A program made the translations under genes and the position numbers. Of a stretch of DNA of 64,000 nucleotides, positions 13,612 through 42,724 are shown piece after piece. The notes under the pieces were generated by a model, which worked only from the letters and a program-made list of their open reading frames with translations, was not told the origin of the DNA and did not search any database. Position 1 is the first letter of the stretch; the number at the start of each line of letters is the position of its first letter. This stretch comes from Mytilus californianus (Eukaryota): assembly GCF_021869535.1 (NCBI RefSeq), contig NW_026262672.1, positions 1,612,001 to 1,676,000 on the forward strand, in the 5' to 3' direction.

Positions 13612-13938
13612 ATGGATTTAGAAACAGACTCGGGATGTTACTTTTCAGACATCCTCCGTTTCAAACCAGCCCATCTGAATATGATGTATTTCACAAATAG
13701 AATGCAAACATATACAAATTGGCCGGAACAGATTAAACAAAAGCCAGAAGATCTAGCTCATAATGGTTTTTTTTACACCGATATAGGAGATAGAGTGACA
13801 TGTTTTTATTGTGACATTACTCTAAAAAAGTGGACTAAAGAAGACGATATCGAAACAGAACATATAAAATGGGATCCAAATTGTTTGTTTGCAAAGATGG
13901 TATCTAGTAAAACCTTGTCCAACATACTTATGAAATAA
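13612..13938 (+). CDS. Single-BIR-domain inhibitor-of-apoptosis-like protein (108 aa)
   Basis: BIR signature R..TY..WP...LA..GFFY...GDRVTCFYC-x16-H-x6-C (CFYC...EH...PNC). No RING domain. Confidence 0.92.
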   Translation: MDLETDSGCYFSDILRFKPAHLNMMYFTNRMQTYTNWPEQIKQKPEDLAHNGFFYTDIGDRVTCFYCDITLKKWTKEDDIETEHIKWDPNCLFAKMVSSKTLSNILMK

Positions 13939-14025
13939 GAATGTTACGTAATGACTGAGATACACTATAAGAAGATCCTCGAATTCCGTTCATTTACAGA
14001 TTGATTGTTGTAGAGAGAAGACACT

Positions 14026-14430
14026 ATGGATGCAACATTTGAAAAAGCCGAGAAACTTATGCATCACACACTTAAATATTTGTATGCTAGGATGGTCTTA
14101 GACTGTTTACCGGATATTGTGAAAGAACATTGTTATGGGTGTGAAGTAAACCACCCGAGTCAGATTCAACACACTTGTTTAATGTGGACAAAAATGGAAC
14201 ATTTAGAAACTTATTTCGATATTGCTTATAAACAGATAGCGGAGAAGGACATGGTTAGGAAGATGTCCAATCAAGTGAAGCTCATGGATGTACCAGATGA
14301 CTATAAAAATGACGTTTTATCTACATTAAAGGATTGGTGCATTCTACATAAACCAAGTACCAAAAATGTGTCACACTGGTGCAAACGATTGGTGTTGTTG
14401 GAAGAAAGATTCACAAACGAATTAAATTAA
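14026..14430 (+). CDS. Uncharacterised Polinton accessory protein with C-x2-C...H-x-C cluster (134 aa)
   Basis: Clean ATG-to-stop ORF inside the element with motif HCYGCEVNHPSQIQHTCL (possible metal site). An acceptor-like ttcatttacAG lies at 13999. Confidence 0.75.
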   Translation: MDATFEKAEKLMHHTLKYLYARMVLDCLPDIVKEHCYGCEVNHPSQIQHTCLMWTKMEHLETYFDIAYKQIAEKDMVRKMSNQVKLMDVPDDYKNDVLSTLKDWCILHKPSTKNVSHWCKRLVLLEERFTNELN

Positions 14431-14484
14431 TTTAAAACACACCGATCATTAACATTGGTTATCATTTGATGTGAAACACTCATC

Positions 14485-14802
14485 ATGAACAGACGTATTT
14501 TTGAAAACTCAACCTTCCTGAAAGAACTTTACTATGATAGACCCCTAAGAAGAAAAGAATTGATTGAGGAGAGTTCCGATGATCAAATTCGAACCATTTC
14601 ACACATTGCATATAAAATTTATCATGCAACACTTATGATTAGTATAGTACATAGACGAAAACTTCGAGAGTTTCGGAACACTATTAAGTTTTTAGCCAGT
14701 GGGAGAATTAGTGTAAGCAGGAAAAGACGAGTACTGTTAGTGTATCACAAATTAATACCACTCCTGATTAAGCCTCTGTTGCATTTACTAGACGAACAAT
14801 GA
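14485..14802 (+). CDS. Small basic helical Polinton protein (105 aa), probable paralog of 19659-19970
   Basis: ATG-to-stop ORF. Its pattern L..L...R.ELI...S..QI..I..I...I...KL...IK.LAS..S...KR..L resembles 19659-19970 by eye. Confidence 0.7.
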   Translation: MNRRIFENSTFLKELYYDRPLRRKELIEESSDDQIRTISHIAYKIYHATLMISIVHRRKLREFRNTIKFLASGRISVSRKRRVLLVYHKLIPLLIKPLLHLLDEQ

Positions 14803-15049
14803 GATGCTTGAACTGTTTCTAATGATATTTCAATAAAAGTTAGTTACTTGTATTTTGTTTTTTGTCTCTTTATTATATTTTCACAAAGTGCATATTGGTT
14901 AGGTATCTCAATTGAAGAAAGTGTCAGTAAAATTTAAATTCCTTCTCGCTTTCAAAACTTTACTTCAGTAGAGATACCAAACCAAGACTATCAGCCTTAA
15001 ATACAAAGGGAACAGGTCTTACCTTTCATAGAATGAAAAAAAATCCAAG

Positions 15050-16156
15050 ATGAACACACAAGATAGAATAAATGATTTAATATCAAACACATATAAAAAC
15101 ACACATGTAGGTCCCGAAAAAATATACAGAATATTAAAATCCAAAGGAATCACTAATGTTGGACGATCCAGGATAAAAAGACTATTACGAAGTCAAGACA
15201 GTTACACTTTAAGAAAGGAACTCCGTCATTCTTTTCGTCGTGCACGTGTAATTGTATCTGGAATTGATGATCAGTGGGACATGGACCTCGCTGATATGTC
15301 AAACATTGCAAGTGAAAACGGTCAGTTTCGATACCTATTAGTCGTCGTGGATATCTTTTCAAAGTATCTGTGGATTCAGGTTCTGAAAAATAAATCAGCA
15401 AAAGTTGTAGTCGAGGCAATGAAGAAAATTTTAGCTGGTAACAGAAAATGTAAAAAGATTCGAACTGATAAAGGAAAAGAATTTAACAACAACATAATGA
15501 AATCATATCTGAAAAATGAAGGTATACAATATTTCACCACACAGAATTCAGAAACAAAGGCTAACTACGCTGAAAGAGTTATCAAGACTGTGAAAAATAT
15601 GATGTATCGATACTTCACAGAGAGGAGAAATCATAGGTACTTGGATGTACTTCAAGATATTGTTAAAGTATACAATTCTACTCCACATAGAAGCTTGAAC
15701 AATATCCAACCAAAAGACGTCAGCAAAACAAACGAAGCAGATATATGGGCATATATGTATTTAAAACCAAAGAAAATAACATCAAAAAAGCCTCGATCAT
15801 ACCACTTTAAGGCTAATGACTTCGTTCGTATTTCTTACATTTCTATGCTATTTGACCGTTCATATGATGAACATTTCACAAGAGAAATTTTTAAAGTTAG
15901 CCAAAGATTTCGAATGCAGGCTATACCGGTTTATAGAATAAAGGAGTATGATGGAACTTCCATAAAAGGATTATTTTATGAATCAGAGATGGTTAAAGTG
16001 AACAAGGATGAAGATGTTATGTGGTATGTAGAAAAAAAAATTCGAAAACGTAAGAGAAATGGACGGGTTCAGTGGTTAGTTAAGTTTGAAGGGTGGCCAA
16101 ATAAATATAATCAGTGGTTGAATGAAGAGGATATCACAGATCCAAATGACTCCTGA
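15050..16156 (+). CDS. int: Retroviral-like DDE (rve) integrase with C-terminal chromodomain (368 aa)
   Basis: Catalytic D (WDMDLADM), D (IRTDKGKEF) and E (AERVIKTVK); chromodomain WYVEK...WLVKFEGWPNKYNQW. Consistent with the 6-bp TSD. Confidence 0.96.
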   Translation: MNTQDRINDLISNTYKNTHVGPEKIYRILKSKGITNVGRSRIKRLLRSQDSYTLRKELRHSFRRARVIVSGIDDQWDMDLADMSNIASENGQFRYLLVVVDIFSKYLWIQVLKNKSAKVVVEAMKKILAGNRKCKKIRTDKGKEFNNNIMKSYLKNEGIQYFTTQNSETKANYAERVIKTVKNMMYRYFTERRNHRYLDVLQDIVKVYNSTPHRSLNNIQPKDVSKTNEADIWAYMYLKPKKITSKKPRSYHFKANDFVRISYISMLFDRSYDEHFTREIFKVSQRFRMQAIPVYRIKEYDGTSIKGLFYESEMVKVNKDEDVMWYVEKKIRKRKRNGRVQWLVKFEGWPNKYNQWLNEEDITDPNDS

Positions 16157-16158
16157 AG

Positions 16159-16578
16159 ATGAGCATCTACATAACATTCAATAGTGAAAAATCTCTGAAC
16201 TATTTTCCAAACAACAAAGCATATACTTTTTCTTCTCAACTGAATTCACCTGTGTTTTTGAATGGAAATTGGAGAGTTGCCTTAGTTGAAGCAGACATTT
16301 CAAGTAGCATATCTAAATCAGAATCCATTTACCTGTATTCTAATATTTGTGGTGAATCTATTGTCGATGGAGAACAAAAGCCACTTCTTCGAAGGTTAAG
16401 TGCAGCCTCTATGGGAAACTGGTCAAACATTTTCGAAGTTCCGCATTATGTTCCTGTAAAAATAAATGACCTCTATAATATTGATATCTATATAAATGAT
16501 GGTGACAACAATCTAGCTTCATTTTTAGATATTCCTGCAACGGTAACACTACACTTCAAATCGTTTCCATTCTTTTAA
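16159..16578 (+). CDS. Minor capsid protein (penton, single jelly-roll), short 139-aa form
   Basis: Polinton penton-like motifs: S..YFP.N....F...L...V.L.G.W.VAL.E, IYLYSNI....IVDG...PLLRR, HYVPV, VTLHF. Confidence 0.85.
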   Translation: MSIYITFNSEKSLNYFPNNKAYTFSSQLNSPVFLNGNWRVALVEADISSSISKSESIYLYSNICGESIVDGEQKPLLRRLSAASMGNWSNIFEVPHYVPVKINDLYNIDIYINDGDNNLASFLDIPATVTLHFKSFPFF

Positions 16579-16580
16579 AA

Positions 16581-17060
16581 ATGAACAAGATGTATGTGCC
16601 AAATGTAGGAAGCTGGATTAATTATTATGAGAAGCTAGACAGAAAAGGTCATCACAATACTAACAAAGGTCAAAAACAAATCGGAGGTGGGTCTCTAACT
16701 GGAACCTCAAGGTCATCCATTACACCAATCGGCATACCAACCAAAACTCCTTCTGGTGAGAAAGTAAAAATTCAACTTGTCTCCCCCGTCCATCAAACGG
16801 ATGAAATGGCCAAGGACATGGTTGAAAGAGAGAAAAAGACATTAAAAAGAAAGCCATCTAGTTATGATGCCAATTCTTCCAAAAGACGTCGAACGAACGA
16901 GACCTCCAAAAAGCCCAGTAAAACCACCAAAAAGTTGACTAAGCACAAAAAGTCAAGAAAGACAACCAAAGCATCAAACAAGAAGAGACATACGAAGAAA
17001 AAAACCAACAAGAAAAAACTGCAAAGCTCTGTGAAAACCTTCAAAGACATATTCAAGTAA
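16581..17060 (+). CDS. Basic K/R-rich core/DNA-condensing protein (pVII-like), 159 aa
   Basis: Lies between penton and MCP, has a very basic C-terminal half, and contains QIGGG, matching the adenain consensus (M/I/L)xGG. Confidence 0.7.
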   Translation: MNKMYVPNVGSWINYYEKLDRKGHHNTNKGQKQIGGGSLTGTSRSSITPIGIPTKTPSGEKVKIQLVSPVHQTDEMAKDMVEREKKTLKRKPSSYDANSSKRRRTNETSKKPSKTTKKLTKHKKSRKTTKASNKKRHTKKKTNKKKLQSSVKTFKDIFK

Positions 17061-18383
17061 ATGGCTGCTTTATCGTTAGATGGGTTCCAAGAAGCTCAGC
17101 CAAGTGGTTTGGATCTGTTTTCATTACCACCAACACAGACAGCGATTGATTCAGTGTATTATGATGAGCATAGGTCAACAGCACAGCTAACTGGAACTGC
17201 GCCAGTAGAATTTAACATTGCAGCCCAAAATTCACTGGAGTATATAGATTTGAGAAAAACAAAATTATATGTAAAAGCGAGAATAAAACATATCAATGGA
17301 GACAGTCTAAAACCTACTGAGTATGTTGGTCCAGTTAACAATTTTCTACATTCTATGTTCTCACAGATTGATATAACATTACAAAATAAGTTGGTGACAT
17401 CAACTACCACACATTATCCATACAAGGCAATGATACAAACTCTTTTATCTTTTGGATCTGAAGCAAAAAAATCTCAGCTGACTAGCCAGTTATGGAAAAA
17501 AGATCAACCAGGACATTTTGATGATAGTGATGTAGAAAATGGTGGCAATTCTTCCTTATTCGATCGCGCACAGTATTTTACTCAAAGTCAAGTGTGTGAT
17601 TTAGAAGGTCCGTTATTTCATGATTTATGTAGTCTGGACAGATACATGCTGAATCAAGTAGCTATTAATGTTAAACTTTACCGTTCAAGACCTGAGTTTG
17701 CTTTGATGACAAGTGAAAAAGATCCAAATTTTCAAGTCATCATCGATGACATAGTGTTAAAAGTGTGCAAAATACGTTTAAACCCTGCTGTCATTATGGC
17801 ACATGCGCAGAAACTACAAACAACAAATGCTAGATATCCCTATACCAGAACAGAAGTGCGCCTTATTTCTATACCTGCTGGGAGTCTTAGTTTCAATTAC
17901 AATAATTTGTTCAACGGGCTCCGACCGACTCGTTGCGTTATAGCTTTTACAGAGTCCGCTAGTTCTAGTGGTTCATATACGTTATATCCATTCAACTTTC
18001 AACATTTCAACCTTAGTCAAATAACGCTCAAACTGAACCAAGTTCCTGTAGGTGGGAATATTATGCAGTTAAACTATGGAGCCACGAGTCGAACTATACT
18101 ACCTGCTTTTAATAGTATGTTTGAAGTGACTAACAAGTGGATGAGAGACAGTGGAAATCAGTTGAGTAGAAATGATATAGTAGGAGGAAATGCTTTATAT
18201 TGTTTTGAAATAGAACCAAATTTCAGCGACGAGGGACAGTACTTAAACTTAGTGAAACAAGGAACTTGTTCTCTAGAAGTCAATTTCAATGCACCACTGC
18301 CGAAAGCGTCCACGTGTGTTGTGTATGCAGAGTTTCCAGCTTATTTTGAAATAAATTTAGAAAGAAACATCATTTTAGAATGA
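17061..18383 (+). CDS. Major capsid protein (double jelly-roll, Polinton PY/hexon-like), 440 aa
   Basis: Polinton MCP motifs LDLFSLPPTQTAI, YIDLRKTKLYVK, PVNNFLHSMFSQIDI, YPYKAMIQTLL, LEGPLFHDL, ARYPY, YPFNFQHF. Confidence 0.93.
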   Translation: MAALSLDGFQEAQPSGLDLFSLPPTQTAIDSVYYDEHRSTAQLTGTAPVEFNIAAQNSLEYIDLRKTKLYVKARIKHINGDSLKPTEYVGPVNNFLHSMFSQIDITLQNKLVTSTTTHYPYKAMIQTLLSFGSEAKKSQLTSQLWKKDQPGHFDDSDVENGGNSSLFDRAQYFTQSQVCDLEGPLFHDLCSLDRYMLNQVAINVKLYRSRPEFALMTSEKDPNFQVIIDDIVLKVCKIRLNPAVIMAHAQKLQTTNARYPYTRTEVRLISIPAGSLSFNYNNLFNGLRPTRCVIAFTESASSSGSYTLYPFNFQHFNLSQITLKLNQVPVGGNIMQLNYGATSRTILPAFNSMFEVTNKWMRDSGNQLSRNDIVGGNALYCFEIEPNFSDEGQYLNLVKQGTCSLEVNFNAPLPKASTCVVYAEFPAYFEINLERNIILE

Positions 18384-18892
18384 ATACTTACCAGCTCAAG
18401 TGTGCCATTGTTTCAGACGTTGACTTACAACGATCTGTTCTTGGTGTATTCTCATCTGATGAACTGTCTCAAGTTCACCTACTACCAGGAATGGGTGTGA
18501 TAGCCAATACAGATGTCGCAGGCTTACCAGGAAGACATTGGGTAGCATTTTTCTGTAATAGAAAGAACAGTCTTGAAGTATTTGACTCTTTTGGGTATTC
18601 AGAAAAAGAACTCACTGTTTATTTTAACAAATTCATGCGGAATTATGCATACATACAATCAAACGAGAAAAGACTACAAGGTGATGACACAGTTGTGTGT
18701 GGACAATATTGTTTGTTTTATTTAATGTGTCGTGTGAGAGGATTTACCATGCAACAGATAACAGATGTGTTTTCAGAAGACTATCAATTGAATGACAATT
18801 TTGTGTACAGTTTTATAGACAATCGGTTTCATTGCTGTGTGAACAATGTGTGTAATGTTGTGAATCAATCTTGTATCAAAATAAAAAATTAA
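18380..18892 (+). CDS. Adenain-like cysteine protease (170 aa)
   Basis: Catalytic H (NTD..GLPGRHW), D (FDSFG) and Q/C (LQ.....CGQYC). The start overlaps the MCP stop (ATGA). Confidence 0.93.
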   Translation: MNTYQLKCAIVSDVDLQRSVLGVFSSDELSQVHLLPGMGVIANTDVAGLPGRHWVAFFCNRKNSLEVFDSFGYSEKELTVYFNKFMRNYAYIQSNEKRLQGDDTVVCGQYCLFYLMCRVRGFTMQQITDVFSEDYQLNDNFVYSFIDNRFHCCVNNVCNVVNQSCIKIKN

Positions 18893-18990
18893 TGCTTATA
18901 TGTTATTGTTGGTGTTGTTGTTGCCTCTCTTTTTTTTTACATATAAAACAGTTTGTCTCTCAGCTATTTTTATTATTTCACTTGAACAGT

Positions 18991-19662
18991 ATGGTTGACT
19001 GGTGGGAGAAGGAAAGTTTGCTCAAATTTCAGAGTCCAACATCAATATTCATTGTTGGTCCGTCAAATTCAGGAAAAACAATGTATACCAAAAACCTTCT
19101 TGAAAATGCAGATGGTATGTTTCAAGTACCACCGTCGAAGATATTTTACTGTTACAGTATTTGGCAGTCAGTTTTCGATGAAATGAAATCAGCAATACCA
19201 AACATTGAATTTTTTCAAGGTTTCCCCCATATGGATGTTTTATCAGAATGGGGGACTTTACAAGGGCATAAGGTTCTTGTTTTAGATGACCTGATGGTGG
19301 AATCTGCAGATAGTAAAGAACTGGTTCATCTCTTAACTGTAGGAATTCACCATAATTCAATCACTTTGATTCAGATTCTACATAACTTGTATTGTAAAGG
19401 TAAAGCCATGAGAACAGCCTCCCTCAATTGCCATTACTTTGTTTTATTTCGGAATTATAGAGATCAGTTACAAATTCAAACTCTTGGTAGGCAGATTTTT
19501 CCCGGACAGTCTAAATACTTTTTAGATGCATACAAGAAGGCGACATCTGTAGCCTATCGCCCATTAATTATTGATTTAAATCCACATACAGACAAAACAT
19601 ATCAGTTGACAACAGATCGTGGAGTTGGACAGACACCTATCGTATATCACTCTGCAGAATGA
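18991..19662 (+). CDS. A32/FtsK-like genome-packaging ATPase (223 aa from M at 18991)
   Basis: Walker A GPSNSGKT, Walker B VLVLDDLM, and downstream HHNSIT / RTASLNCHY / RDQLQI motifs. The ORF-track start at 18871 is non-ATG and low-complexity. Confidence 0.94.
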   Translation: MVDWWEKESLLKFQSPTSIFIVGPSNSGKTMYTKNLLENADGMFQVPPSKIFYCYSIWQSVFDEMKSAIPNIEFFQGFPHMDVLSEWGTLQGHKVLVLDDLMVESADSKELVHLLTVGIHHNSITLIQILHNLYCKGKAMRTASLNCHYFVLFRNYRDQLQIQTLGRQIFPGQSKYFLDAYKKATSVAYRPLIIDLNPHTDKTYQLTTDRGVGQTPIVYHSAE

Positions 19663-19970
19663 AGGACTATTTAGCACATTTTCTTTTGAATGCTACTGCA
19701 AAACAAATTTCTCAAGCGATTAAATCACTAAGCAAGGAACAGTTGGAATGGTTGGTTGAAATAATATACAATGTGATGCAAGGAGTTTGCCCCATTTCAA
19801 GTGTTGATAAAACTTTGCTGACCAAGAAAAAGAAGCTCATACGTAAAATTGTTTCCAAAGGAGCAGCATATAAACAGAGAAAATTATATTTATTAAAAAT
19901 AAGAGGACTGCTTCCTAGTTTCCTAAAGACATATCTCCGTTATGTCTCGCGAACTGATTCTGATTCCTAA
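19659..19970 (+). CDS. Small basic helical Polinton protein (103 aa)
   Basis: ATG overlaps the ATPase stop. Motif QL..LVEI.YN...G..P....K..L.K.K..IRK resembles a small ORF commonly found next to the ATPase in Polintons. Confidence 0.8.
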   Translation: MKDYLAHFLLNATAKQISQAIKSLSKEQLEWLVEIIYNVMQGVCPISSVDKTLLTKKKKLIRKIVSKGAAYKQRKLYLLKIRGLLPSFLKTYLRYVSRTDSDS

Positions 19971-20250
19971 ACTGAGGTATGAACAATTAAAAAATCCAGA
20001 GACATTGCCGGAAAAAAGAGAAAATCGAGATCAAGATCAGCCGAAAGATAAACCAGAAAATATCGATGACTTGGAAAGTAAACAGTTAGTAGAGGACTTT
20101 CAACCTGAAAAATTGAAGAAGTCAAACAAAAAGAGAAAAATTACACAACACGAGGAAAGTAAACCATATATCGCTATGTCCCTTAAAACAATGCTGCAAG
20201 AGAAAAGTAAACAAAAACCAAAGATGAAATGGTTATCGTTTCGAATTTAG
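19942..20250 (+). CDS. Charged hypothetical Polinton protein (102 aa)
   Basis: Overlaps the previous ORF. Starts M.RELILIP..RYEQL and ends KW..F, a pattern I recall from Polinton ORFs at this position. Confidence 0.7.
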   Translation: MSRELILIPKLRYEQLKNPETLPEKRENRDQDQPKDKPENIDDLESKQLVEDFQPEKLKKSNKKRKITQHEESKPYIAMSLKTMLQEKSKQKPKMKWLSFRI

Positions 20251-20281
20251 ATGTCATGTGACATCGTCACGTGTATTTAAA
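20250..20281 (+). promoter_or_regulatory. Candidate polB promoter: palindrome GATGTCATGTGACATC, E-box GTCACGTG, TATA-like TATTTAAA
   Basis: Motifs read directly at 20250-20265, 20266-20273 and 20274-20281, about 47 nt upstream of the ATG at 20328. Confidence 0.5.
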
Positions 20282-20327
20282 TTGAGGAAATTAGGTAGCT
20301 GTTATCATTTTGTGTAAAGTGAAAAGC

Positions 20328-23300
20328 ATGGCTCACCGCGGTGTTCATACCAATGATTTACATTTTAACGAATCTGATGATGGTATGTTGGTGAAGGCAG
20401 CCATAGAGGTTGAGAATAAACTCAAACGTAAGAAATCATGTGCTGAAAATGTTGATGTCAAAAGACCAAAGTTAAATTGTGATATTTGTGATAAAACTTT
20501 CAAATACAACAGAAATTTGAACAGACATATGAATTCACATTTTAACAGAATTCAGTGTTTAGCGTGTGGGAAATCGTTTACGCAAAAACATAATTTAGTC
20601 AAACATGGTAATAAGTGTTCTGGACAGCGCACAATAAACAAACGAGATAAACAATTATCTAAGCAACTTACATGTAGACACTGTGATGTCTCCTTTGATG
20701 ATGTTGATTCTTTATTCACCCATGTTGCCAACCATCATCCGTTAAACCAAACAGGAGGTAGAATGCCTAAAACGGAGGAGCCAGTTGTCAGTCAGATAAA
20801 ACGTAAACGGTTTCGTTTTAAGAAAAGCGCCATTAACAAATCAGTGAATCGTGTAGACCTTATGCCTATTGGTGATGAAAAATATGATTTATTACGTTTT
20901 TTGGCTAATACGAAAACTGATGTTGAAGAAATAATAGTATCTCAGCAAAAGAAACAAAAAAATGTCAAATGGTATGTAAATGCTCGAGTGAAGATGGTTC
21001 GAGATATTGATGATGGACAACAAGAAAAGGCACACCCACATTTCCGCAGCAAAAGTTACATATCTCTTCAGAATGAGAGTAATGATCATAATTTAAATGA
21101 AGCTTTCCAAACGATTAACAGAGTAATGGAAGAATTTATCAACAAGGGATCTAACTGGATATTGAATAAAGTTATATGCCTCGAAGTACATACTTTACCA
21201 TACTCACCCATAGCTGGTTCAAATTATATGGAATTACCATACAAAATTAAGGCCACTGGTGGAATTATCAACATTAGAAATGATGACCAAAAGTGTTTCC
21301 TATGGTCTGTACTGGCAGCCCTACATCCGATGGAATATAATCCATATCGGAAGTCACATTATACGGCACACGAAAATGAATTGAACATGAACGATATTGA
21401 ATATCCTGTGTCTTTAACAAAAATGGAGAAATTTGAGAAACAAAACAATATTTCAATCAATGTTTTTGGCTTTGAAAACGAAGAAGTGTTCCCACTATAT
21501 TTAACAAAGTTAGAAAATGTAGATAGGGAGATCGATTTATTGTATTTATCACAGAACGGGGAAACTCACTACTGTTGGATCAAAAATTTAGATCGTTTCC
21601 TTGGATCAATGACTAAATTTCACACCAAACGGTTTTACTGTAGAAGATGTCTTCACGGATTCATAAGACAAGACTTATTAAATGAACACAGACTATATTG
21701 TAATAAGTTTGATTTTCAAAAAGTGACTTATCCAAAAGAAGGAGAAGCCATTTTAGAATTTAGAGACTTTCATAAACAAATGCGTGTTCCTTTTGTCATC
21801 TATGCAGACTTTGAATGCTTTGCAAAAAAGATGGATACTTGTCAACCAGACCCAAATCAATCGTCAACAACACATAAAACAAAATTTGTTCCATGTGGTT
21901 ACTCCTACGTTGTGGTCAGTTCAAATGATAGATATTCCAAGCCAGCCGTTGTATACAGAGGAGAGAACGCAGTCGAACACTTTTTTGAAAATATATTTAC
22001 AGAGGAAGAATACATAGATGATATATTGAGGAACATTTATGAGGAGTTAATTATGAGTGTGGAAACCGAAACGCAATTTCAAAATGCTACAAACTGTTAT
22101 GTATGCAATCAACCATTTTCAGGCAAAATAATCAAAGTTCGTGACCACGACCATTTAGGTATAAACGAAGATAACGAATCACCAAAGTATAGCAATTACA
22201 GAGGGGCAGCCTGTCAGAGATGCAACTTGATGTTGAAAAATCCAAATTTCATTCCGGTCTATTTTCATAATTTGCGGAACTTTGATGCACACCTTTTGCT
22301 GTCGGAAGCTGGTAAATTCAAGGACAAAAAATTAACATGTATACCAAACAATATGGAGAAATATGTGTCCTTTTCTGTTGGACAACTGAGGTTTTTAGAC
22401 ACATACCAGTGCATGAGTAGCTCTTTGGAGACGTTAATTGCTAATTTAGCGGCAGACGGTTTTAAAAATTTCAAACAATTTCGAAAAGCTTTCCCCAATG
22501 ACGAACACGCTAAACTTTTGCTACAGAAAAACGAATACTGTTATGATTATGTGAATTGTTCTGAAAGATTTGAAGAGACAGCTCTCCCTTCAAAAGCAGC
22601 TTTTTATAATTCCTTAACCAAAGAAGCTATTTCTGATGAAAAGTATGAACACGCTCAAAAGGTCTGGAACACGTTCAATATGAAAACCTTAGGGGATTTT
22701 CACAATTTGTATGTATTAACAGATACGCTACTCTTAGCAGATGTTTTCGAACGATTCCGTGACATGACTCTTAAATATTACAAGTTGGATGCTAGTCACT
22801 TTTTCACGAGTCCAGGTTTAGCATGGCAAGCAGCATTGAAAATGAGCGGTGTCTGCCTGGATTTAATAACTGATCCCCTCATGTACAACATGATAGAGCT
22901 TGGAACACGAGGTGGGGTCAGTATGGTTACCAAAAAATACAGTCGAGCTAATCATCAATATGTTGACGACTTTAATGAATCAGATGTGAAAAAACACATC
23001 ATGTATCTAGATGCTAACAATTTGTACGGTTGGGCAATGTCTCAACCATTGCCTTCTGGTTTTTTCCATTTTTTAAATGAAGATGAAATTAGTCATTTTG
23101 AGTTACAGAAAGTCGAGTCAGACGCAAAAGAAGGCTACATTTTAGAAGTAGACATAGAATATCCTGAACATCTCCACAACAAACATAACGATTATCCTCT
23201 GGCACCCGAACATCTACTCATTGAAGACAAAGATCTATCGAAATACAGTACTGATTTATGGGGAAAGTTAAATTCTGTGAAGAATGCAAATGGTGTGGAA

Positions 23301-25235
23301 AAAGTGAAACCTAGGATTAAAACCCGAAAATTAATTCCAACTCTGAAGAAAAAGACAAACTATGTGGTGCATTATCAAAATTTACAACTTTATACAGAAC
23401 TTGGAATGAAAATAACTAAAATACATAGAGTATTAGGATTTCAACAAAAGGCATGGCTTAAAACCTACATAGAATTCAACACCAACATGAGAAAACAGGC
23501 AAACAACGACTTTGAGAAGGACTTTTTCAAACTGATGTGTAATAGGTATGTTTCTCGTTTTTTTTTTTTTTTATATAGATTAGACCGTTGGTTTTCTCGT
23601 TTGAATGGTTTTACACTTTTGGGGCTCTTTATAGCTTGTTGTTCGGTGTGAGCCAAGGCTCCGTGTTGAAGGCCGTACATTAGCCTATTATGGTTTACTT
23701 TTTTTTTTAAATTGTTATTTGAATGGAGAGTTGTCTCATTGGCACTCACACCACATCTTCCTATATCTATGTTATTTTTAAATGTGTAAGATTTTAAAGT
23801 GTTGTCAAGATCTCGAGTTTGCTTGTTGTCTCATTGTCGCATTACCCACATTGATTTAATTATGTTTTGTGGTTTTTGTGTCAGCTTCTAGTACTTATCT
23901 AAAAGTATTCCTACTTTTTCAGTGTTTTTGGTAAATGTATGGAAAATTTGCGTGCTAGGATGAATCTAAGACTAATCAATTCAGCCTCGGAAGAAAAACT
24001 AAAAAAGTTAGTAGCTCAGCCGTCGTTTCTATGCTGCCAAATTTTCAATGAAGACCTCGTTGGAGTACACAACCAACAGATCAACCTAACTCTCAATAAA
24101 CCCATCTATGCCGGACAAGCTATTTTAGACCTTTCAAAGAGACTGATGTATGAATTCCATTACAAGGTGATGAAGCCTCAGTACGGTGACAAGATCAACT
24201 TGCTGTTTACAGATACAGGTATGATATTTTTTTGTTTGTTTGTTTGTTAAAATAAAAGCCATTGTTTCTTTAAATTTCTAATATTTCTCATTGTTTTCTC
24301 CTTTGTATAAGTAGAATAAAGGAAGAGATTCCTCTTTGGTATTGTGCTAACATTTCTGAATTCATTTTAGATTCGTTGTGTTATGAGATTCTGACTGATG
24401 ATGTATATGAAGACATGAAACCTATCAAAGACCTATTCGATACCTCCAACTACGGCTCATTCAACAAAACGAAACATCTCTTTTCCAGCAAATATAAGAA
24501 AGTCGTTGGGAAATTTAAAGATGAGCTTGGTGGTGAGTTCTTTCAAACAAACATTTTATTTTTCTCTCTCTAAAGTTTAACATAAATTTTCTTTCAAATT
24601 TTCCTTTTTCTTGTGAATTTTCTGTAAAATTTTCCTTTTTCTTTTGAATTTTCTGTAAAATTTTCCTTTTTCTTTTGAATTTTCTGTAAAATTTTCCTTT
24701 TTCTTTAGAATTTTCTGTAAAATTTTCCTTTTTCTTTAGAATTTTCTGTTAAATTTTCCTTTTTCTTTAGAATTTTCTGTTAAATTTTCCTTTTTCTTGT
24801 GAAATTTATGTTAAATTTTCCTTTTTCATGTGAATTTTCTGTTAAATTATTATTAAATATTGTCTTTCTCATGTGCCTCAAAAAATCTTTTCAGGTGTTC
24901 CTTTAAAAGAATTCGTTGGCTTGAGACCTAAAATGTACAGCCTTTTGTATAACCAGACCTCTACAGAAGGTATCACATGCGAAAAGGAAAAAAAAGTGGC
25001 GAAAGGCATTTCAAAAACTGAAATAAAACAGACTCTCCGACATGAAATGTATAAGACATGTTTGAATGAAGAAACTACGACCACCAATTCAATGACGTGC
25101 ATTAGAAGTAAAAATCATGAACTTTTCATGGATACCGTTGTGAAAAAAGGACTGTGTAGTTTTGATGATAAACGTTACTGGAAGAACCCAATTGAAAGCT
25201 ATGCCTATGGACATTATAAGATAGACACATATTAG
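20328..25235 (+). CDS. polB: Protein-primed family B DNA polymerase, 4 exons (20328-23545, 23923-24218, 24371-24532, 24895-25235), 1338 aa; N-terminal C2H2 fingers and an endonuclease-VII-like insert
   Basis: Exonuclease motifs YADFEC and FHNLRNFD; motif A YLDANNLYG. Splicing restores KLMCNSVFGKCMENLR (motif B), FTDTDSL (motif C) and KFKDELGGVPLKEFVGLRPKMYS. Spliced length is 4017 nt = 1339 codons with no internal stop. Confidence 0.93.
23546..23922 (+). other. polB intron 1 (GT-AG, phase 2), contains a host dispersed-repeat fragment
   Basis: Donor AG|GTATGT, acceptor cctactttttcAG|T; joins AG+T = Ser in KLMCN-S-VFGK. Confidence 0.92.
24219..24370 (+). other. polB intron 2 (GT-AG, phase 1), splitting the catalytic DTDS motif
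   Basis: Donor ACAG|GTATGA, acceptor ttcattttAG|AT; G+AT = second Asp of FTDTDSL. Confidence 0.93.
24533..24894 (+). other. polB intron 3 (GT-AG, phase 1), contains a 31-bp minisatellite
   Basis: Donor G|GTGAGT, acceptor atcttttcAG|GT; restores DELGGVPLKEFVGLRPK. Confidence 0.9.
24597..24846 (+). repeat. Tandem minisatellite, ~8 x 31 bp (AAATTTTCCTTTTTCTTKWGAATTTTCTGTW)
   Basis: Directly visible periodic repeat inside polB intron 3. Confidence 0.92.
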
Positions 25236-25369
25236 TGATAGTATTTATTAAATATTTAAAAAAAAAACTAACCGTGTCAGTCTGTTTGCATATATGTCCG
25301 TAATGAAATTTATAAATGTTATTCCTATAAACACCACATTGAATGAAAGTCACACCACATTGAGCATCA

Positions 25370-27141
25370 TCACATCGATTGGAAAAAGGCTCCCATTTCC
25401 TCCTCAGAGAGATCATATAAATTGTTTTGCACAGGGGAAATCTGTTCATATTTTGTATTCTTCCCAGACCACTGTGGGTTTAATTCTTCACGTATCGGTC
25501 TCTTTGCGGCCATCCTCACCGGAATCATATTTCCTTTGCTCCACATCGGGTCTGTTATAGTTTGAAGTGGAGTGGTAGTTGACGTCTCGTTTTCATATAT
25601 TATTGTTAGAGGTGCCTGCAATAATAAAAATGAAATATTTAAATAAATAAACCAGAGAGAAATGAAATACTTTCAGTGTTGCTTATCTTTTTTTTTTTAA
25701 GGACAAAAGGTTGTTTGCAAGTTCAATTCTATACTTAAAAAACAAGTATTGCTTTGTTCGCATTTAAGTGTATCAAGTTAAGAATACATGGTGATTCTTG
25801 AGAAGAACAAAAAAAAACCCACCCTCTATTGCAAGACTTACCTATTGTATGTATTGTTAACTTGTTCTCACCCTGAGCATGTATGAAATATTTGCCACTG
25901 GACGTTAACCAACCAACAATCAATCATGATTCTTGAACATATTTAAACTCTACATTAATAAATGTATACTTACGGAAGGTGTTGGTGGTGGTTGCTTAAC
26001 GTCCAGTGGCAAATATTTCATACATGTTCAGGGTGAGAACAAGTTCAGAATACATGGTGATTCTTGAGAAGAAGAAAAAAAAACCCACCCTCTATTGCAA
26101 GACTTACCTATTGTATGTATTGTTAACTTGTTCTCACCCTGAACATGTATGAAATATTTGCCACTGGACGTTAAGCAACCAACAATCAATCATGATTCTT
26201 GAACATATTTAAACTCTACATTAATAAATGTATACTTACGGAAGGTGTTGGTGGTGGTGGCGGTGCATAAACCGGCGCTACATTTTCTTTAAGTACAACC
26301 TGCTCCTGTGGCTGGGAGAGCGGCTAAAACATGAAAAATAAAATAAAACTCAAACTCAAATGTTATGAAGAAAGTTTTATACTTGCGAGAGGTGTTGGTG
26401 GTGTGCATATTGTTTTTCGTTCATTATTTTGTACATAAATTAGGTTGTTATCTTTTTTCTCCCCTCGGATGTTTGTTTTACATTCATCATTTTGAAGCTA
26501 TTTATAGCTGACTATGAGGTATGGGTTTTGCTTATTGTTGATGGTCGCAAGGTGACCAAAAGTTGACAATTTCTGTATCATTTGGTCTCTTGTGAAGAGT
26601 TATCTTATTAACAATCATACCACATCTTCGTTTTATGTTATTCAATTGTTGCATTAAATTAGTTAAAATAAAAGGCAAATGTGAACACCGATATCTCCCC
26701 TAACAAAAGCGAGGTAGATAGATAAACAGAAAGATAAACGGTAATAGACAATACTTAAAACCTTCCTGTTGTTTACGGTAAGCGCATACAAACAGAGAAA
26801 AAAAAACACCTCAAAGGGTATAATCTTTAATTTTCCTCGGTTTTTAAAGAAAACTCCTACATGTGAACCTCGTGTAAAAACAAAAAGAAAGAAAATAGTC
26901 TTACCTGTGGAAAGTATGCAGTTAGGGACTCTAGGTGCCCCCTCAGTGTAAACAGATCATCCAGCTCGTCTAGCCCTAAATTCAGCTTCATTGATCCATT
27001 TGACGCAGCCAAGTCTAAATAAAAGAGTCCTCTAGCGGACTTTTTATAGGTAAGCACTTTCCCTCTCCCGAATTGAGTTTTGTATTCCGTTCTACCAGTG
27101 GAAGTAATAATTTGACTAAATTGAACATTTTCGGCTGCCAT
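25370..27141 (-). CDS. Three-exon Polinton accessory gene (27141-26905, 26323-26240, 25615-25370), ~188 aa; N-terminal beta-rich domain possibly PC4/ssDNA-binding-like, Pro-rich linker
   Basis: Donors CAG|GTAAGA (26904) and TCC|GTAAGT (26239); acceptors gttttAG (26324) and ttattgcAG (25616). All junctions are phase 0 and the ORF stays open. The domain call is only a by-eye resemblance. Confidence 0.72.
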
Positions 27142-27786
27142 TATAACACTTAATCGTAAATAGATTTCTAGACAAAGGTTAGAAGTACTGACTTGTAAAC
27201 GAAAAATACGCACTACTATATTTATTTCATTTTTCTAGCTAATATTATCTAAACCAATAATATTACACTTTGAAGTATGGGGTGGGACTAATGGAGGGAT
27301 AATCACCCCATTCTTAGGTTTCGCATAACAACTCTATACCAAATTGTTTATGTGGTGCGCAAACAAAAATGCGCTTAACAACAAAACAACGTGTTGATGA
27401 ATCTCTAGAAACTATACTGTGATAATATTTCATCTGCTTTATTTTTGGGTTTCTTAACTTAAAATCTTTATCTAAAGCAGCTACATTGTAAAAAAAAACC
27501 CAAAACGTTCGATTTTTTTTTCTGAAATTTTTTTTTGAGTGCCATTGTCTCGTACCTAATATTTTCTTATTATATGTTTCCGTTCCCCCCTTTTTTTTTC
27601 GAGTTATGCTATTGTTGAAGATCATATAGCAACATCTCAATTCTTTCATATTTATTCTTTTTCGTATTGTTCTTTTTTTTTTTTTGTTGACACAATCATA
27701 ATCTCCCGCCTTTTTATTTTTAATTAAACTGTTGATTATGTGCACATGCGCAAACGATTCACAGAGAAAAAACTGAAAAATCAAAA

Positions 27787-29026
27787 ATGGTGCCCGCTAA
27801 GTGTTTGTTGTTGTTGAGTATTGTTGTATGTAATGGCCAAGTGCATGACCTTAATATAAGGAAATGCAGAAGTGTGGTTGATGAAAGCTACGAGGTAGTG
27901 GAGCTGCAGTGCCTGTATGAGGGGGAAGGCAGCTACATTTTCAATGGGCCGACTTCAGTGAAGAAGATTACCCTGGACAGACTGGCGGGTTCCAGTACAT
28001 TAATGACTTTTGGCCAGCAGTTAGAAAAAGTAGCCATCAAAACATGCACCATAGACAATTGTTGCCAGGCCATTTCAGCAACCCCTAGCACGGAAGTGCA
28101 GATTGCGGATAAAGTTTGTGTAAGATGCTATTACGTAACTTGTTTTCAACATCCGCCATTTTTATTGTTTACAAAAAATTGACACCTACTTTATGAAAGA
28201 CAAATTCCCTTTATTTTCTTTTGAAAGTATAACAATATAAGAAAAGAAATATTTGTTAGCATAATTTTAATTGTATTTCTATTAAACAGATTTGTGTTAA
28301 AAACTATAAATATTAAATTTGATAACTGTCTATAAATATTATTGTTTTTGTTTACAGTCACTGGAAGACCTTGTTTCCTCTACTGGTGTGGTTGAGACCT
28401 CTCCTCATACGGAGGGGGGTTCTCCTGACTCCTCAACAGAATGGTCTCAAAGCGCTCCAACATCAGCAGTGTACGAGCACAGCCAAATGTCCAGCACTCT
28501 CCCTGACCATCAACAGGTGGGTTTTCACCTATAGGGCAAAGAGAATCCCTACTTAACATAACCATTGCATTGTGGTGATGTATTCTAAAAAACATGAAAA
28601 CACTGCTGTTAAAATTAACGTAAACAATTTTGAAAGTACTTATTTTCACTATTTTAGACATTTATACTTATAAATTTCTCATGCTTTAAATTCAGCTAAA
28701 GCTAAATGTGTATTGATTGTAACATGTAGTAGGGTGTGGATTAGGTTATGTTATTTTATTTGTGTACATGTAGTTTATTATTTAATTTTTTATTTTAGAC
28801 TACTACAGAAAATGAGACGAACTCAACAACACCGTGGATAGTAGCAACCGTCACCACTTTAACAGGTAGCTTAAAAGTTTATATAATTTTTCTTGGAGTA
28901 ATTTTGTTTCTTTTAATTGTCTTAATTTTGGTGTTCTTATTAAAAAAGTATTACTATCAATCAGACTACATTCCAGTTAAGAACGATGATTCTTTATATG
29001 TTGAAATGGATACCATAACTAGTTAA
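27787..29026 (+). CDS. Spliced type I membrane glycoprotein, isoform A (exons 27787-28119, 28358-28516, 28799-29026; 239 aa)
   Basis: Signal peptide MVPAKCLLLLSIVVCNG, 6-Cys ectodomain, Ser/Thr-rich stalk with NET/NST sequons, TM VYIIFLGVILFLLIVLILVFLL followed by KK, tail YYYQSDYIPVKNDDSLYVEMDTITS. Phase-0 GT-AG junctions at 28120/28357 and 28517/28798. Confidence 0.82.
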
Positions 29027-29045
29027 ATTATTTCTTTTCTTGTAG

Positions 29046-29170
29046 TACTTCTGGTGATAGCTCTCATTTGTTTGGGGAAGAAATGTTTGAGGAATAGTAG
29101 GGGAGGGTTAATTGAGCATTGTCTTCCTCTACAGGAGATTCCTACTGCCCCTAAATATAAGGACTATTAG
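29046..29170 (+). CDS. Alternative terminal exon B of the membrane glycoprotein gene (VLLVIALICLGKKCLRNSRGGLIEHCLPLQEIPTAPKYKDY*)
   Basis: Acceptor tttcttttcttgtAG (29045); phase 1 from the donor at 28865/28866; completes the TM WIVATVTTLT-VLLVIALICL-GKK. Confidence 0.68.
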
Positions 29171-29276
29171 GATAAAAGAAATAATTATTAATTTAAATTG
29201 TAATTTCAATATCACTGCTTTTAACTCTTTTTTTTCAATATCACTGCTTTTAACTCTTTTTTTTTTTTACTTACAG

Positions 29277-29398
29277 TGATATTCTTTCTAATAGGTGGAT
29301 TTATTGTTTGGAGGAAAAGACATTCTCAAAATATTTCAAACTCTGAAGATGAACTCTATAATAAAGCCTGGTACAATTTAAGTAGTGACAATTTATAA
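29277..29398 (+). CDS. Alternative terminal exon C (VIFFLIGGFIVWRKRHSQNISNSEDELYNKAWYNLSSDNL*)
   Basis: Long poly-T acceptor ttttttttacttacAG (29276); phase 1; completes the TM and is followed by the stop-transfer WRKRH. Confidence 0.68.
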
Positions 29399-29432
29399 AA
29401 TTTGTATTTTTTTTTTTATTTTCTTCTTGTAG

Positions 29433-29545
29433 AGCAATTTCAAGTTCTAATCTTTACCATGATTAGTGTATTAGTGGTTTTAAACCGTATCCATAGACTT
29501 TTGTTAAATGCAATACCAGCTATTAGAAACTTCATCCCCCTGTAA
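29433..29545 (+). CDS. Alternative terminal exon D ((EQFQ)VLIFTMISVLVVLNRIHRLLLNAIPAIRNFIPL*)
   Basis: Acceptors at 29432 (ttttcttcttgtAG) and 29444, both giving the same phase-1 frame; hydrophobic run followed by NRIHR. Confidence 0.55.
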
Positions 29546-29778
29546 GACAGCTTATTAACCCTCCTCAACATCAACCACCACAACAAGCAGCAGTCCAACC
29601 TATACCACCTGCAGTACACCAGGAAGTCATCCTACCCTTACCAGCACCTCCACTCATTTTAAGAAGAAGCACCAGACAGTCCATACCACCCAACAGGCTT
29701 AATTTGTGATTAATTTGTGTATTATGTTTTTTTTTTGTTTGTTTTCAAACCAAACTTCTATATAATTTGTGTAATTAA

Positions 29779-30043
29779 GATGTACCTAACACTACAGGGG
29801 GATAACTCTGTAAAATCAGCTAAATGTTAATTATGATATGTATTTAAGGGCATTGTAATAAGCTTCTCAATGGTTGAAATTAGTGTTTGTTAAACTGTTA
29901 TATACCCAGTGTAATTTTTATAAAGAAATGGTTGCTTCAAATATTTTGAAATTTTTATCAAAGGTTCAAAATAAATACTTTGTTAAAATTTTATGAAAAC
30001 TCAACAAACCAAATTTATTTTAGGTAAGGTGTTGGATACCACC
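29779..30043. mobile_element. Non-autonomous DNA transposon (TTAA TSD, imperfect TIR; Kolobok/piggyBac-like) inside the Polinton
   Basis: TTAA at 29775-29778 and 30044-30047; ends GATGTACCTAACAC versus reverse complement GGTGGTATCCAACAC. Confidence 0.55.
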
Positions 30044-30146
30044 TTAATTATAAAACTATGAATAATACCATTGTAAGACTAGCTTTATGAATCATATTGC
30101 TTCATTAAGTAACTTCATATACAAAAATGTTTAAAGTATTTCTTAC

Positions 30147-30508
30147 CTGTCCTTTAAGATATCTAATCCTATCTGCAGCATGTCTCGGCTTTGCACACTA
30201 TTAGCTGTATTGCACTGCTGCATCAGTTCTCCCAAAAATGTCTCGCTCATTCGTATGAGACATCCTATCCTAGTTTCCCTGCTTTCATGCAACAAAGCAT
30301 GATATAGTGCAGAAACATTAAATTGCATGCTACTGAATGTGTTGATGGGTTGCTGACAATACCAATTCTTTATTTCTTCAAACAACTCAGGTTGTATTGA
30401 ACACTTATAACATGGGAAAAAATGACTCCCCACTACTGGTATATGTTGAGATACAAAATTAGTCAATTGAGAAAGAAAGTTACTGATTGAAGCACGATGA
30501 TCCATCAT
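30147..30508 (-). CDS. Probable exon of a further Polinton accessory gene (Cys/His-containing, unknown function)
   Basis: 121-codon ATG ORF ending at a strong donor GACAG|GTAAGA (30146), with an acceptor ctatttAG just upstream of the ATG. The downstream exon was not identified. Confidence 0.5.
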
Positions 30509-31479
30509 AAAGTTTTCTAAATAGAATGAAAGTATAACATTTTTCCTAAATATTAAAGGACTTATTCTTCTCTCTTGGTTATGATAAGATTCATTAAATA
30601 AAGTTGGGTTGATAAATTTAATTCATTTAGACTTAACTGAGATGCCATTTTAGGATTAATTTATATATGACTAAGCATCCATTGTGATAACAAAGGAGAC
30701 ATTAGCATTTCTATGCTATATTATCTTAAGAAGTTTATTGAGGGGGGCTTTTTTTTTATTATTGAAGGTTTTAACAAAGGAGAGTGATAATTTTCCATAC
30801 ATAAGAAAGACTCAACATCCTGTGTTTGACATGATTATAAATTATGGATAAATTGATACATTTTTCGCTTAATTTCTCTCTTTAAATTTATTTTTATGAT
30901 GAAAATAGGGAATAAGTCAGATTTTTGAAATGATGTTACTTTAAAGGGTGTTGTTTATATTATACATATCTAGAAGTTTTGTATATATGTTTACACAAGT
31001 CTGTTTTGTTATGTTAAGAAGAAGTTTAACTCAAATTAGAAATAATATATGTTTATCTGTCTGATGTTCTCCATTAACAGTTAATTAGTTTTGAAACTTG
31101 ATTGCAATTAAGACAATTTCCTATACTCTACATTTAAAGATTGTTATACATGTTTATCTATCAACAGTTATTTAGCTTGAGGCTTGATTGTAATTAAAAA
31201 TATTTAGTAATTATACAGTATGATAACTTCTAAAGGAAGAAAATCAAAATATTTATGAAGCTTTACATCAGAGGAATTATCTGATATGATCTATCAGATT
31301 AAAAGATAACGTTTATTTGGTCTTAAAAATAATGTAAAAATATCAAAAATGCTATAGAGGTTGATGGGGAACATTAGACAGACCTTAGTAGTATATGAAA
31401 TGTTTATACTGTAATATAAAACATGTATCTTGTGTACAATTTGGAGTTTAGTATGGCGTTCATTATCACTGAACTAGTA

Positions 31480-31633
31480 TATATATTTGTTTAGGGGCCA
31501 GCTGAAGGACGCCTCCGGGTGCGGGAATTTCTCGCTGCATTGAAGACCTGTTGGTGACCTTCTGCTGTTGTCTGTTCTATGGTCGGGTTGTTGTCTCTTT
31601 GACACATTCCCCATTTCCATTCTCAATTTTATA
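31480..31633 (+). repeat. ~150-bp abundant mussel-type dispersed repeat inserted in the Polinton
   Basis: Sequence TTTAGGGGCCAGCTGAAGGACGCCTCCGGGTGCGGGAATTTCTCG...CATTCTCAATTTTA, recognised from memory as a common Mytilus repeat; flanked by TA runs. Confidence 0.65.
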
Positions 31634-32723
31634 TAGTCTTTGTTTTTCTTGTTATTAAGCAATATAGTTGTGATAATTTATTAAATGTTAATTGTTTTAA
31701 AGTTGGTGCTAAATAATTGTGATAATCATTAAAGTTCATATTTCAAATCATGATAGTTGTACTCCTGATAACATGCTGTTATATATATTTAATATATTCA
31801 TTTACAATGATAGTTTAAGAGAGGAAAATATACTCTATAAAGACAAGTTTTATAAAAAAAAAAAGTAGTGCTTATACTATAGTTTTGGTGCTAACTGTTT
31901 TATGGTGCTATGCATTCCGCCAGATTCCCCTATAAAGACAAGTTTTATAAAGAGAGTAGTACACTACATTTTTACTAAAGTTTTGGTGCTGTGTATTCTT
32001 ACATTGAAAAAATAAGCATTTACGGTTGTTAATCAAACCATGATACCTGTATATATTTTATCTATATTTTGTTACTTTAGTGCAACATTCCATCTTTTAA
32101 TTTTTGCTTCATGCGTGTTTTCATTTTAAACGTGGAAACCATGTGGGTTATATTTTTATTTTATAACATAATTTATCTTCTATCACATTCCATCAAGTTA
32201 CTTTTTATATTGTAGTCATTTTTAAAAACTAGAATCATCTAGTTAATCATATTACTATATGTAATCTTTTACATGTCTCTTTTTAGAAATCCATTCTTGT
32301 TAAAAAAAAAAAACATTTGTTTTAGAAGCTTTATTAAATTTTATATATATTAGAAACAAACTCAGGGTTGTATGCTCAAATATCGGTTTTAATACAAGTT
32401 TTTATATACTATACATAGTATTGTAATATTTATTTTTTATGCTAAAAATACTCAATCAGTTTTTGCAATAATGGTGATCTACACAAAATGTGATGTATAC
32501 ATAATGTATATAAGTTTTTGATAATAAAAATAATTTATTTTCTTCAATCTTTGTTTTATCTCTTCTCAAGTTTCTGTAGTTTGTGTGTTGTGGAAAGAAA
32601 ATGAATGCCACCCCTTACCAACAACCATCTCTCTCACATATTGACTAACTCCAAGCAAATAACAATTTAGACAAGCAAAAAACAACACAAAATTCTACAA
32701 CGTGGACAACATGGACGTCATCT

Positions 32724-42715: not shown

Positions 42716-42724
42716 CTAATTTAT

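Follow-up and report, generated by a model that had tools for sequence, protein, structure and literature searches.

We describe here a mussel Polinton/Maverick whose gene for a protein-primed DNA polymerase of family B (pPolB) is interrupted by three introns, one of them inside the catalytic DTDS motif. The element lies in a 64,000-nt stretch of the Mytilus californianus genome (contig NW_026262672.1, positions 1,612,001 to 1,676,000; hereafter the window, whose coordinates we use throughout). It is a young, i.e. recently inserted, Polinton with pPolB, integrase, ATPase, protease, capsid and terminal repeats, and it is a real and well-supported variant of this known type of element. We propose with good confidence that the lineage likely gained host-type introns serially, long ago, and very likely must now splice all three to obtain a working enzyme.

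Three introns split the polymerase

The four exons of pPolB (Table 1) contain no internal stop and add up to 4017 nt, i.e. 1338 codons and a stop. The original prediction, made from the sequence of the window, of three GT-AG introns whose removal restores a 1338-aa frame was thus right in its coordinates, its intron ends and its stop-free exons. The introns are rich in T (46-55%) and each carries stops in all three frames. Exon 1 holds C2H2 fingers, the Exo I-III motifs, an endonuclease-VII-like insert, motif A and the first half of motif B, and it is predicted to hold also a terminal-protein and vOTU region (Cys323 and His414 motifs). Intron 1 falls in the Ser codon of motif B. Intron 2 divides the codon for the second Asp in motif C, which places it within DTDS as had been claimed, and intron 3 splits that of a Gly after the KDE motif. 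All three fall within the last 799 of the 4017 nt (p = 0.008 for three random positions), in agreement with the claim that they cluster in the C-terminal polymerase part. When the exon ends are projected onto the 120 best homologues, 83 of these have exactly one residue between each exon and the next, at all three junctions.

Conservation at the intron sites was assessed in 45 uninterrupted relatives. It lies at the 97th-99th percentile at sites 1, 1b and 2, and at the 46th at site 3, so that a general rule of introns targeting conserved motifs holds for the former and fails for the latter. The homologues are named DNA-directed DNA polymerase, with PF03175 in 7 of 120; a PF03175 search of the window's own pPolB exons gave no match, and a search of PDB sequences with exon 1 returned only zinc fingers among the 60 matches listed.

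The features of major-class introns (GT-AG ends, donor consensus, pyrimidine-rich acceptor) are present. A YTRAY branch-point-like motif was found 12-45 nt upstream of the acceptor in 12 of 21 introns, including 6 of the 7 intron-2 sequences, counts that have no chance control. Two other kinds of intron were considered and rejected. Self-splicing group I or II introns have no Rfam match in 12963-33009, and the segments have stops in all frames and no homing ORF (open reading frame). Introners or recent transposon insertions do not fit segments whose sequence is unalignable between families and whose ends show no terminal repeat.

Copies in the mussel genome keep the introns

The same genome (1.65 Gb assembly) was searched at the DNA level, with 40 candidates scored, and yielded at least 30 loci. 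These come down to the window itself, 15 sisters spanning exons 2-3 and two copies with exon 4 only. Introns 1 and 2 are found in 15/15 sisters and intron 3 in 13/13 resolved ones. Splice dinucleotides are nearly invariant (GT 42/43, AG 42/43, with one donor and one acceptor mutated). Hence the sisters keep both the segments and their splice sites, where the original prediction would have taken the lack of the segments, with no splice-site conservation, for a sign of recent inactivation. Intron lengths vary freely, from 175 to 377 nt for intron 1, from 137 to 154 nt for intron 2 and from 362 to 1306 nt for intron 3, covering every phase class. Among seven full-length sisters we counted 50 intron indels, 40 of them not multiples of three, versus none in 5,593 aligned nt of exons 2-4, although low-complexity intron sequence inflates such indel counts. 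The dN/dS (ratio of non-synonymous to synonymous substitution) relative to an older sister is 0.24. Own 6-bp target duplications flank 6 of 8 same-family stretches (one unclear, one truncated) and were resolved for 4 of 9 other-family stretches. The intron-bearing copies have moved with their introns in place.

A protein search with exon 2 extends this to other families (150 of 471 candidates scored). Half of the 30 loci returned are from other families, and five of these 15 (L046, L048-L051; 70-79% identical in exon 2) carry GT-AG introns at all three codons. Four have an intron at site 3 only (L053-L055, L060), two have introns at sites 2 and 3 plus one three codons after site 1 (L056, L058), L052 has introns at sites 2 and 3 with site 1 not resolvable, and L059 lacks introns 1 and 2. 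Several of the other-family loci are full elements of 19-21 kb whose gene order and terminal repeats match those of the window's element. Across families, the introns show no better alignment than shuffled sequence and silent sites are saturated (proportion of differing sites, pS, 0.80-0.85), leaving between-family dN/dS mostly uncorrectable (pS above 0.75). Non-synonymous divergence in exons 2-4 (pN 0.16-0.26) is like that of the end of exon 1. Unalignable introns at the same codons, together with saturated silent sites, indicate that the introns are old and the spliced protein under selection; equal constraint upstream and downstream of the introns indicates that splicing is required.

One might argue instead that the segments are recent inactivating insertions, in a dead family spread in trans by intronless Polintons. 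A high-copy host repeat of about 220 nt (23547-23767) does sit within intron 1 in the window and in 10 sisters, intact intronless families do exist in the genome, and introns 1 and 2 were not seen spliced (see below). Yet the five older sisters that lack the repeat keep an intron 1 of 175-201 nt, which means that the repeat entered a pre-existing intron and that the subfamily spread afterwards. The same codon sites are occupied by unrelated sequence in divergent families, purifying selection acts downstream of the inserts, and intron 3 is excised exactly in RNA. We regard a dead family as extremely improbable.

Wider distribution and probable history of intron gain

Protein databases hold probable traces of split genes. 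Ten of the 120 best homologues, at 53-77% identity, stop 1-44 residues after the intron-1 site; five database proteins stop at site 3 and three at the shifted site three codons after site 1. The expectation that ORF-based surveys would score this gene as dead therefore holds to some extent, since these ten proteins end by the intron-1 site and since vertebrate elements are called intact when their ORFs are intronless (available sections of PMC8097293). It was overstated in that tblastn and splice-aware annotation still find the gene: introns 2 and 3 are spliced out in P0008, a publicly available gene model of Mytilus edulis with 99-100% identity across exons 2-4.

As had been suggested, intron positions were mapped on a pPolB tree, here by maximum likelihood with a midpoint root on the last 330 residues of exon 1 (75 rows, including 34 of the 83 uninterrupted proteins and 6 of the intronless loci). 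All rows with site 1, 2 or 3 fall in one clade of 32 rows (100/99). Intron 3 is the most widespread, being found in all main branches of this clade, and intron 1 is mainly found in a 16-row subclade (98/84). The intron sets are nested within the clade, and the simplest reading of this pattern would be stepwise gain, with intron 3 the oldest, and some loss. The shifted site at motif B appears in three separate places of the tree (among L188-L190 of the mussel's own genome, L069, P0029, P0034 and P0061) and may reflect parallel gain or sliding.

Among 91 metagenome and viral loci, 71 span all three sites without insert and 20 are partial. Apparent inserts in 48 of the 91 were nearly all relative to the yardstick P0060, which has a deletion of its own, and were dropped; inserts in L088, L106, L111, L112, L129 and L132 remain without explanation after this correction. 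Two of the 91 loci, L062 and L069, carry GT-AG inserts at other sites of pPolB. In L062, a contig from a metagenome that falls outside the main clade, the insert is 127 nt long (L062:3158-3283).

Introns can favour export of host-like mRNAs, escape from the silencing of intronless RNA, or nonsense-mediated decay. The introns might be selected for expression, by giving a long AT-rich viral RNA the look of a host mRNA, or by letting such decay clear transcripts of damaged copies that would yield dominant-negative fragments. That this 3' region gained introns more than once, in lineages that are separate (the shifted site three times, and L062), is in line with this idea, and the 3' placement would put junctions downstream of almost any stop in exon 1. 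Against it, the other core genes of the same element are intronless, so are all three sites in the 71 metagenome and viral loci, and intronless families thrive in the same genome. We consider selection for expression quite unlikely.

RNA evidence for sense splicing

Four of 24 sequencing runs were aligned to 13300-25700. The contig sets among them (X1, X5, X6) are presumed RNA, none of the runs is recorded as RNA, and depth was low. Intron 3 is skipped exactly (362 nt, GT..AG) in contigs of X5 and X6, with 255 and 26 letters respectively on the short side, i.e. in two studies with two organism labels. The RNA check called for by the original prediction thus gave junction-spanning contigs for intron 3 and, in the four runs, none for introns 1 and 2. 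Two other signals were not counted. Contigs of X1 and X6 ending at donor 2 (24217-24218) do so where reads were cut at a repeat, and the very high depth at 23236-24063 is due to the host repeat in intron 1.

Several observations weigh against obligatory splicing of old introns. A joint for intron 1 or 2 was found in none of the 4 runs, nor was a fully spliced pPolB transcript at 13300-25700. At the ends of intron 1, contigs of X1 and X6 read straight through without splicing, and the last 113 nt of intron 2 are retained in the X5 contig that lacks intron 3. The contig sets are only presumed RNA, and exons 1-3 have no coverage in the raw run X21. The intron states of database proteins come from ORF stops alone, and the indel contrast between introns and exons is inflated as said above. 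In the degraded loci L044 and L045, close to the window family, intron 1 is absent exactly and intron 2 or its donor is kept, so that precise intron loss, or recombination with an intronless family, does occur. Finally, the Polinton population of this genome is large and diverse: pPolB matches number at least 150, many of them lie in open frames longer than 1250 aa, and families with introns coexist with families that lack them. The many intronless relatives (about 50% identity, with open frames of this size) could mobilise intron-bearing elements in trans.

Weighing both sides, we favour the following scenario. Host RNA polymerase II would transcribe the element in the nucleus and the spliceosome would remove the introns, as seen in RNA for intron 3 and as we infer for introns 1 and 2. 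The dependence on nuclear splicing that had been proposed is supported in this sense, by selection on exons 2-4 and by one junction in RNA. The 1338-aa protein, with its terminal-protein, vOTU, exonuclease and palm parts (an order given in the available sections of PMC11161782), would then replicate the element in a protein-primed manner. Since Polinton replication goes from DNA to DNA, every new insertion would inherit the introns, which would seldom disappear. As they lie in or next to motifs where an indel is not tolerated, splicing would have to be precise to be viable. Selection would hold the GT and the AG, and the sequence between them would be free to drift, to vary in length and to take up host repeats. 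Most likely, the introns are passengers that were tolerated at first and have become obligatory, and they do not serve as a device dedicated to control.

A spliced antisense RNA across the core genes

The contigs also reveal a spliced non-coding RNA from the opposite strand, which spans the genes for polymerase, protease, likely minor capsid and integrase and was found in two studies. X1 and X6 share the CT..AC joints 15382-16333, 16452-18391 and 18552-20672; the joint 20765-25272 is found in X1, and in X6 with 18 other letters. On the minus strand the donors are GTAAAT, GTAAGT, GTAAGT and GTTAGT, and the acceptors are pyrimidine-rich. A coding role was rejected, since three of its four downstream exons are closed by stops in every frame. 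A gene of three exons is predicted on the minus strand (25370-27141); the first antisense donor is 97 nt beyond its stop, and the RNA is most likely a spliced 3' extension of this gene. We found no joined DNA form of it: 12 of 12 close genomic copies of one antisense exon run into both flanks, the remaining 6 matches to this exon being distant families. Nearly every copy of the same family that includes this region retains the antisense splice sites. In other families three of the seven sites are kept (4/4, 4/5 and 4/5) and the remaining four are not. In the raw reads of X21, 8/8 at 25057 have the first mate on the plus strand, i.e. are antisense if the library is of the usual stranded type. 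Given this RNA, reads counted over Polinton genes without strand information are not necessarily a sign that the genes are expressed.

These results could be taken to mean that the introns serve a regulated latency switch. By default, partial splicing would lead to RNA degradation or to a polymerase-dead protein with terminal-protein, vOTU and exonuclease parts, antisense RNA from the gene that converges from the right arm would restrain the core genes, and full splicing would turn replication on. All introns do lie 3' of those three parts and break motifs B and C. A retained intron 1 brings a stop after one residue in 4 of 7 elements. The contig with intron 3 out and intron 2 in, the unspliced contigs over intron 1, the antisense joints of the two studies, the X21 reads at 25057 and the three antisense splice sites kept in other families can all be read in this way. 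However, a GTAA donor in phase 2 brings the early stop with it in any case, and unspliced contigs would be explained just as well by nascent RNA, carried-over DNA, dead copies or the antisense intron of 4.5 kb, which covers the polymerase and can therefore explain contigs that look unspliced. The antisense sites that are kept lie under plus-strand coding constraint, and the four others are not kept in other families.

The original prediction had put forward a simpler version, a switch between the full polymerase and an exonuclease/terminal-protein-only product, and this version fared poorly. Besides those parts, exon 1 holds motif A and one half of motif B. Read-through into intron 1 adds a tail of 1, 35, 37 or 44 unrelated residues across families, conserved neither in length nor in sequence. 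There is no common poly(A) signal in intron 1, the hexamer being absent in 3 of the 7 elements examined, including the window's own. We think a regulated latency switch unlikely. On a broader scale, an old molluscan Polinton clade might have put its replication under host RNA control, with stepwise introns in catalytic motifs and core-wide antisense RNA making up a latency switch in an adenovirus-like programme. Incomplete splicing would then give no polymerase (or surplus terminal protein) and complete splicing would start replication, the antisense RNA providing a possible second arm. This proposal seems to us rather doubtful.

Comparison with known systems

Splicing of a protein-primed polymerase has a precedent in a nuclear double-jelly-roll virus. 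Adenovirus E2B polymerase and terminal-protein mRNAs are made by host splicing, with both strands transcribed, and the splicing joins a short leader to long uninterrupted body exons. Unlike in this pattern, the mussel introns cut the catalytic palm itself.

Polinton core genes are usually described as intronless, as had been stated. In the available sections of Barreat and Katzourakis (2021, PMC8097293), intact vertebrate Mavericks/Polintons have no introns, 'intact' stands for intronless ORFs, and GeneWise 'introns' are treated as insertions. As described there, these elements resemble ours in size, terminal repeats, 6-bp target duplication, integrase, pPolB, ATPase, protease and capsid genes; they differ from the mussel element, which has three conserved pPolB introns and all core genes on one strand. 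Nematode Mavericks, in the accessible part of Widen et al. (bioRxiv 10.1101/2022.07.12.499685), have intronless core genes and cargo genes with introns. They share with the mussel element the intron-containing accessory genes near an element end, whereas here the introns interrupt a gene essential for replication. Introns or intron-making elements inside Polinton-like elements are also described as introners in eupolintoviruses of dinoflagellates (PMC12166617) and as group I introns in Polinton-like viruses of cryptophytes (PMC12220804). According to the sections available, these are either mobile insertions of young age that are under-represented in coding regions or RNAs that splice themselves, whereas the mussel introns are old, position-conserved, unrelated in sequence, spliceosomal, and located in catalytic motifs of an animal element. 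The adintovirus OTU-pPolB and the TP-vOTU-EXO-PALM polymerases (PMC8502044, PMC11161782) have the same domain order and motifs; the consulted portions of these texts make no mention of spliceosomal introns in the gene. Word searches of the available text of PMC8502044, PMC10748475, PMC11296320, PMC11161782, PMC10328495, PMC11131425 and bioRxiv 10.64898/2026.10.13.758929 turned up no such introns. We found no description in the literature of spliceosomal introns in an animal Polinton polymerase, nor of a spliced antisense Polinton RNA, though subscription papers, Repbase notes or supplements may mention either. The present case adds depth: there are many copies in several families, their intron sets are nested, one junction has RNA behind it, and a transcript of the antisense strand was found.

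A mobile and selected clade with an intron-split polymerase breaks the published intronless rule for sorting intact from dead copies, and ORF-based counts will miss or misfile live lineages. Splicing ties these elements to nuclear transcription, which is hard to square with replication in a cytoplasmic giant-virus factory. The nested intron sets record, in a form open to dating, how a replicon made of DNA only gained and perhaps lost introns, and the exon junctions provide a direct RNA marker of true polymerase expression.

The host element and its other genes

The terminal repeats begin with AG and contain short end repeats, and the 6-bp target duplication, a Polinton trait, is present. The core gene block and pPolB are all on the plus strand, in the order BIR, two unknown ORFs, integrase, a 139-aa ORF, a basic 159-aa ORF, capsid, protease, ATPase, two small ORFs and pPolB. 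Intronless core genes are a descriptive trait of Polintons, not a taxonomic criterion; pPolB breaks it and the other core genes conform.

Table 1. Features of the Polinton and its polymerase gene, in positions of the window.
Feature	Position	Strand	Length	Remarks
Polinton/Maverick element	12963..33009	+	20,047 bp	ends AGTAGT...ACTACT; 6-bp target duplication CAGAGT
Left terminal inverted repeat	12963..13248	+	286 nt	100% complementary to right one; 63-75-nt subrepeats
BIR (inhibitor-of-apoptosis) domain gene	13612..13938	+		Pfam PF00653, E 1e-23
Retrovirus-type integrase	15050..16156	+		C-terminal chromodomain; intronless; PF00665 (E 8.5e-11), PF00385
Spliced antisense RNA, non-coding	15168..25301	-		introns 4506, 2119, 1938, 950 nt; CT..AC joints in X1 and X6
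Antisense exons	25273 upward, 20766-20672, 18552-18392, 16453-16333, 15382-15168	-
Conserved ORF after integrase, likely minor capsid protein	16159..16578	+	139 aa	assigned by position and size only
Major capsid protein, double-jelly-roll type	17061..18383	+	440 aa	intronless; ESM Atlas score 0.98
Adenovirus-type cysteine protease	18380..18892	+		intronless; PF00770, E 3e-5, above cut-off
A32/FtsK-type packaging ATPase	18991..19662	+		intronless; PF04665, E 3e-5, above cut-off
pPolB exon 1	20328..23545	+	3218 nt	1072 whole codons; motif names in part from PMC11161782
Intron 1	23546..23922	+	377 nt	phase 2, in motif B; GTATGT..TTTCAG
pPolB exon 2	23923..24218	+	296 nt
Intron 2	24219..24370	+	152 nt	phase 1, inside catalytic DTDS; GTATGA..TTTTAG
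pPolB exon 3	24371..24532	+	162 nt
Intron 3	24533..24894	+	362 nt	phase 1; GTGAGT..TTTCAG; 31-nt tandem array 24585-24848
pPolB exon 4 with stop	24895..25235	+	341 nt	ATTAAA at 25247
Predicted accessory gene, three exons	25370..27141	-	188 aa	converges on pPolB; exons 27141-26905, 26323-26240, 25615-25370; phase-0 GT-AG introns
Predicted accessory gene, three exons, type-I membrane protein	27787..29026	+	239 aa	exon 1 28-43% conserved in other families
Right terminal inverted repeat	32724..33009	-	286 nt

The capsid assignment follows from Atlas features with a score of 0.98 to clusters that have PF21738 in 30% and 15% of their members, no fold prediction being involved. The 139-aa ORF is 55-67% conserved in other families and has no Pfam match. 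The BIR gene at the left end is common to most related families of this genome; it is frameshifted in 3 of 6 young sisters, where the core genes are better preserved.

For the predicted minus-strand gene, a guessed PC4-like identity was unsupported (best Atlas score 0.79 for the first exon). A 266-nt tandem duplication (25774-26258, 98%) copies the end and donor of its middle exon together with a host repeat. The predicted 239-aa protein would have a signal peptide, a Cys-rich domain, a Ser/Thr stalk and tail tyrosine motifs, and its introns are in phase 0. Further right, short exon-like pieces with GT-AG edges were read by eye at 29250-29710 (+) and 29800-30508 (-); they resemble a second membrane-protein-like gene and include a 120-aa ORF ending at a donor. 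Outside the element, the window holds a 166-nt tandem array (5833-7537) and a 620-nt inverted repeat pair (92%) with ORFs of 365 and 303 aa (43444-45035 and 41679-44058), probably other transposons.

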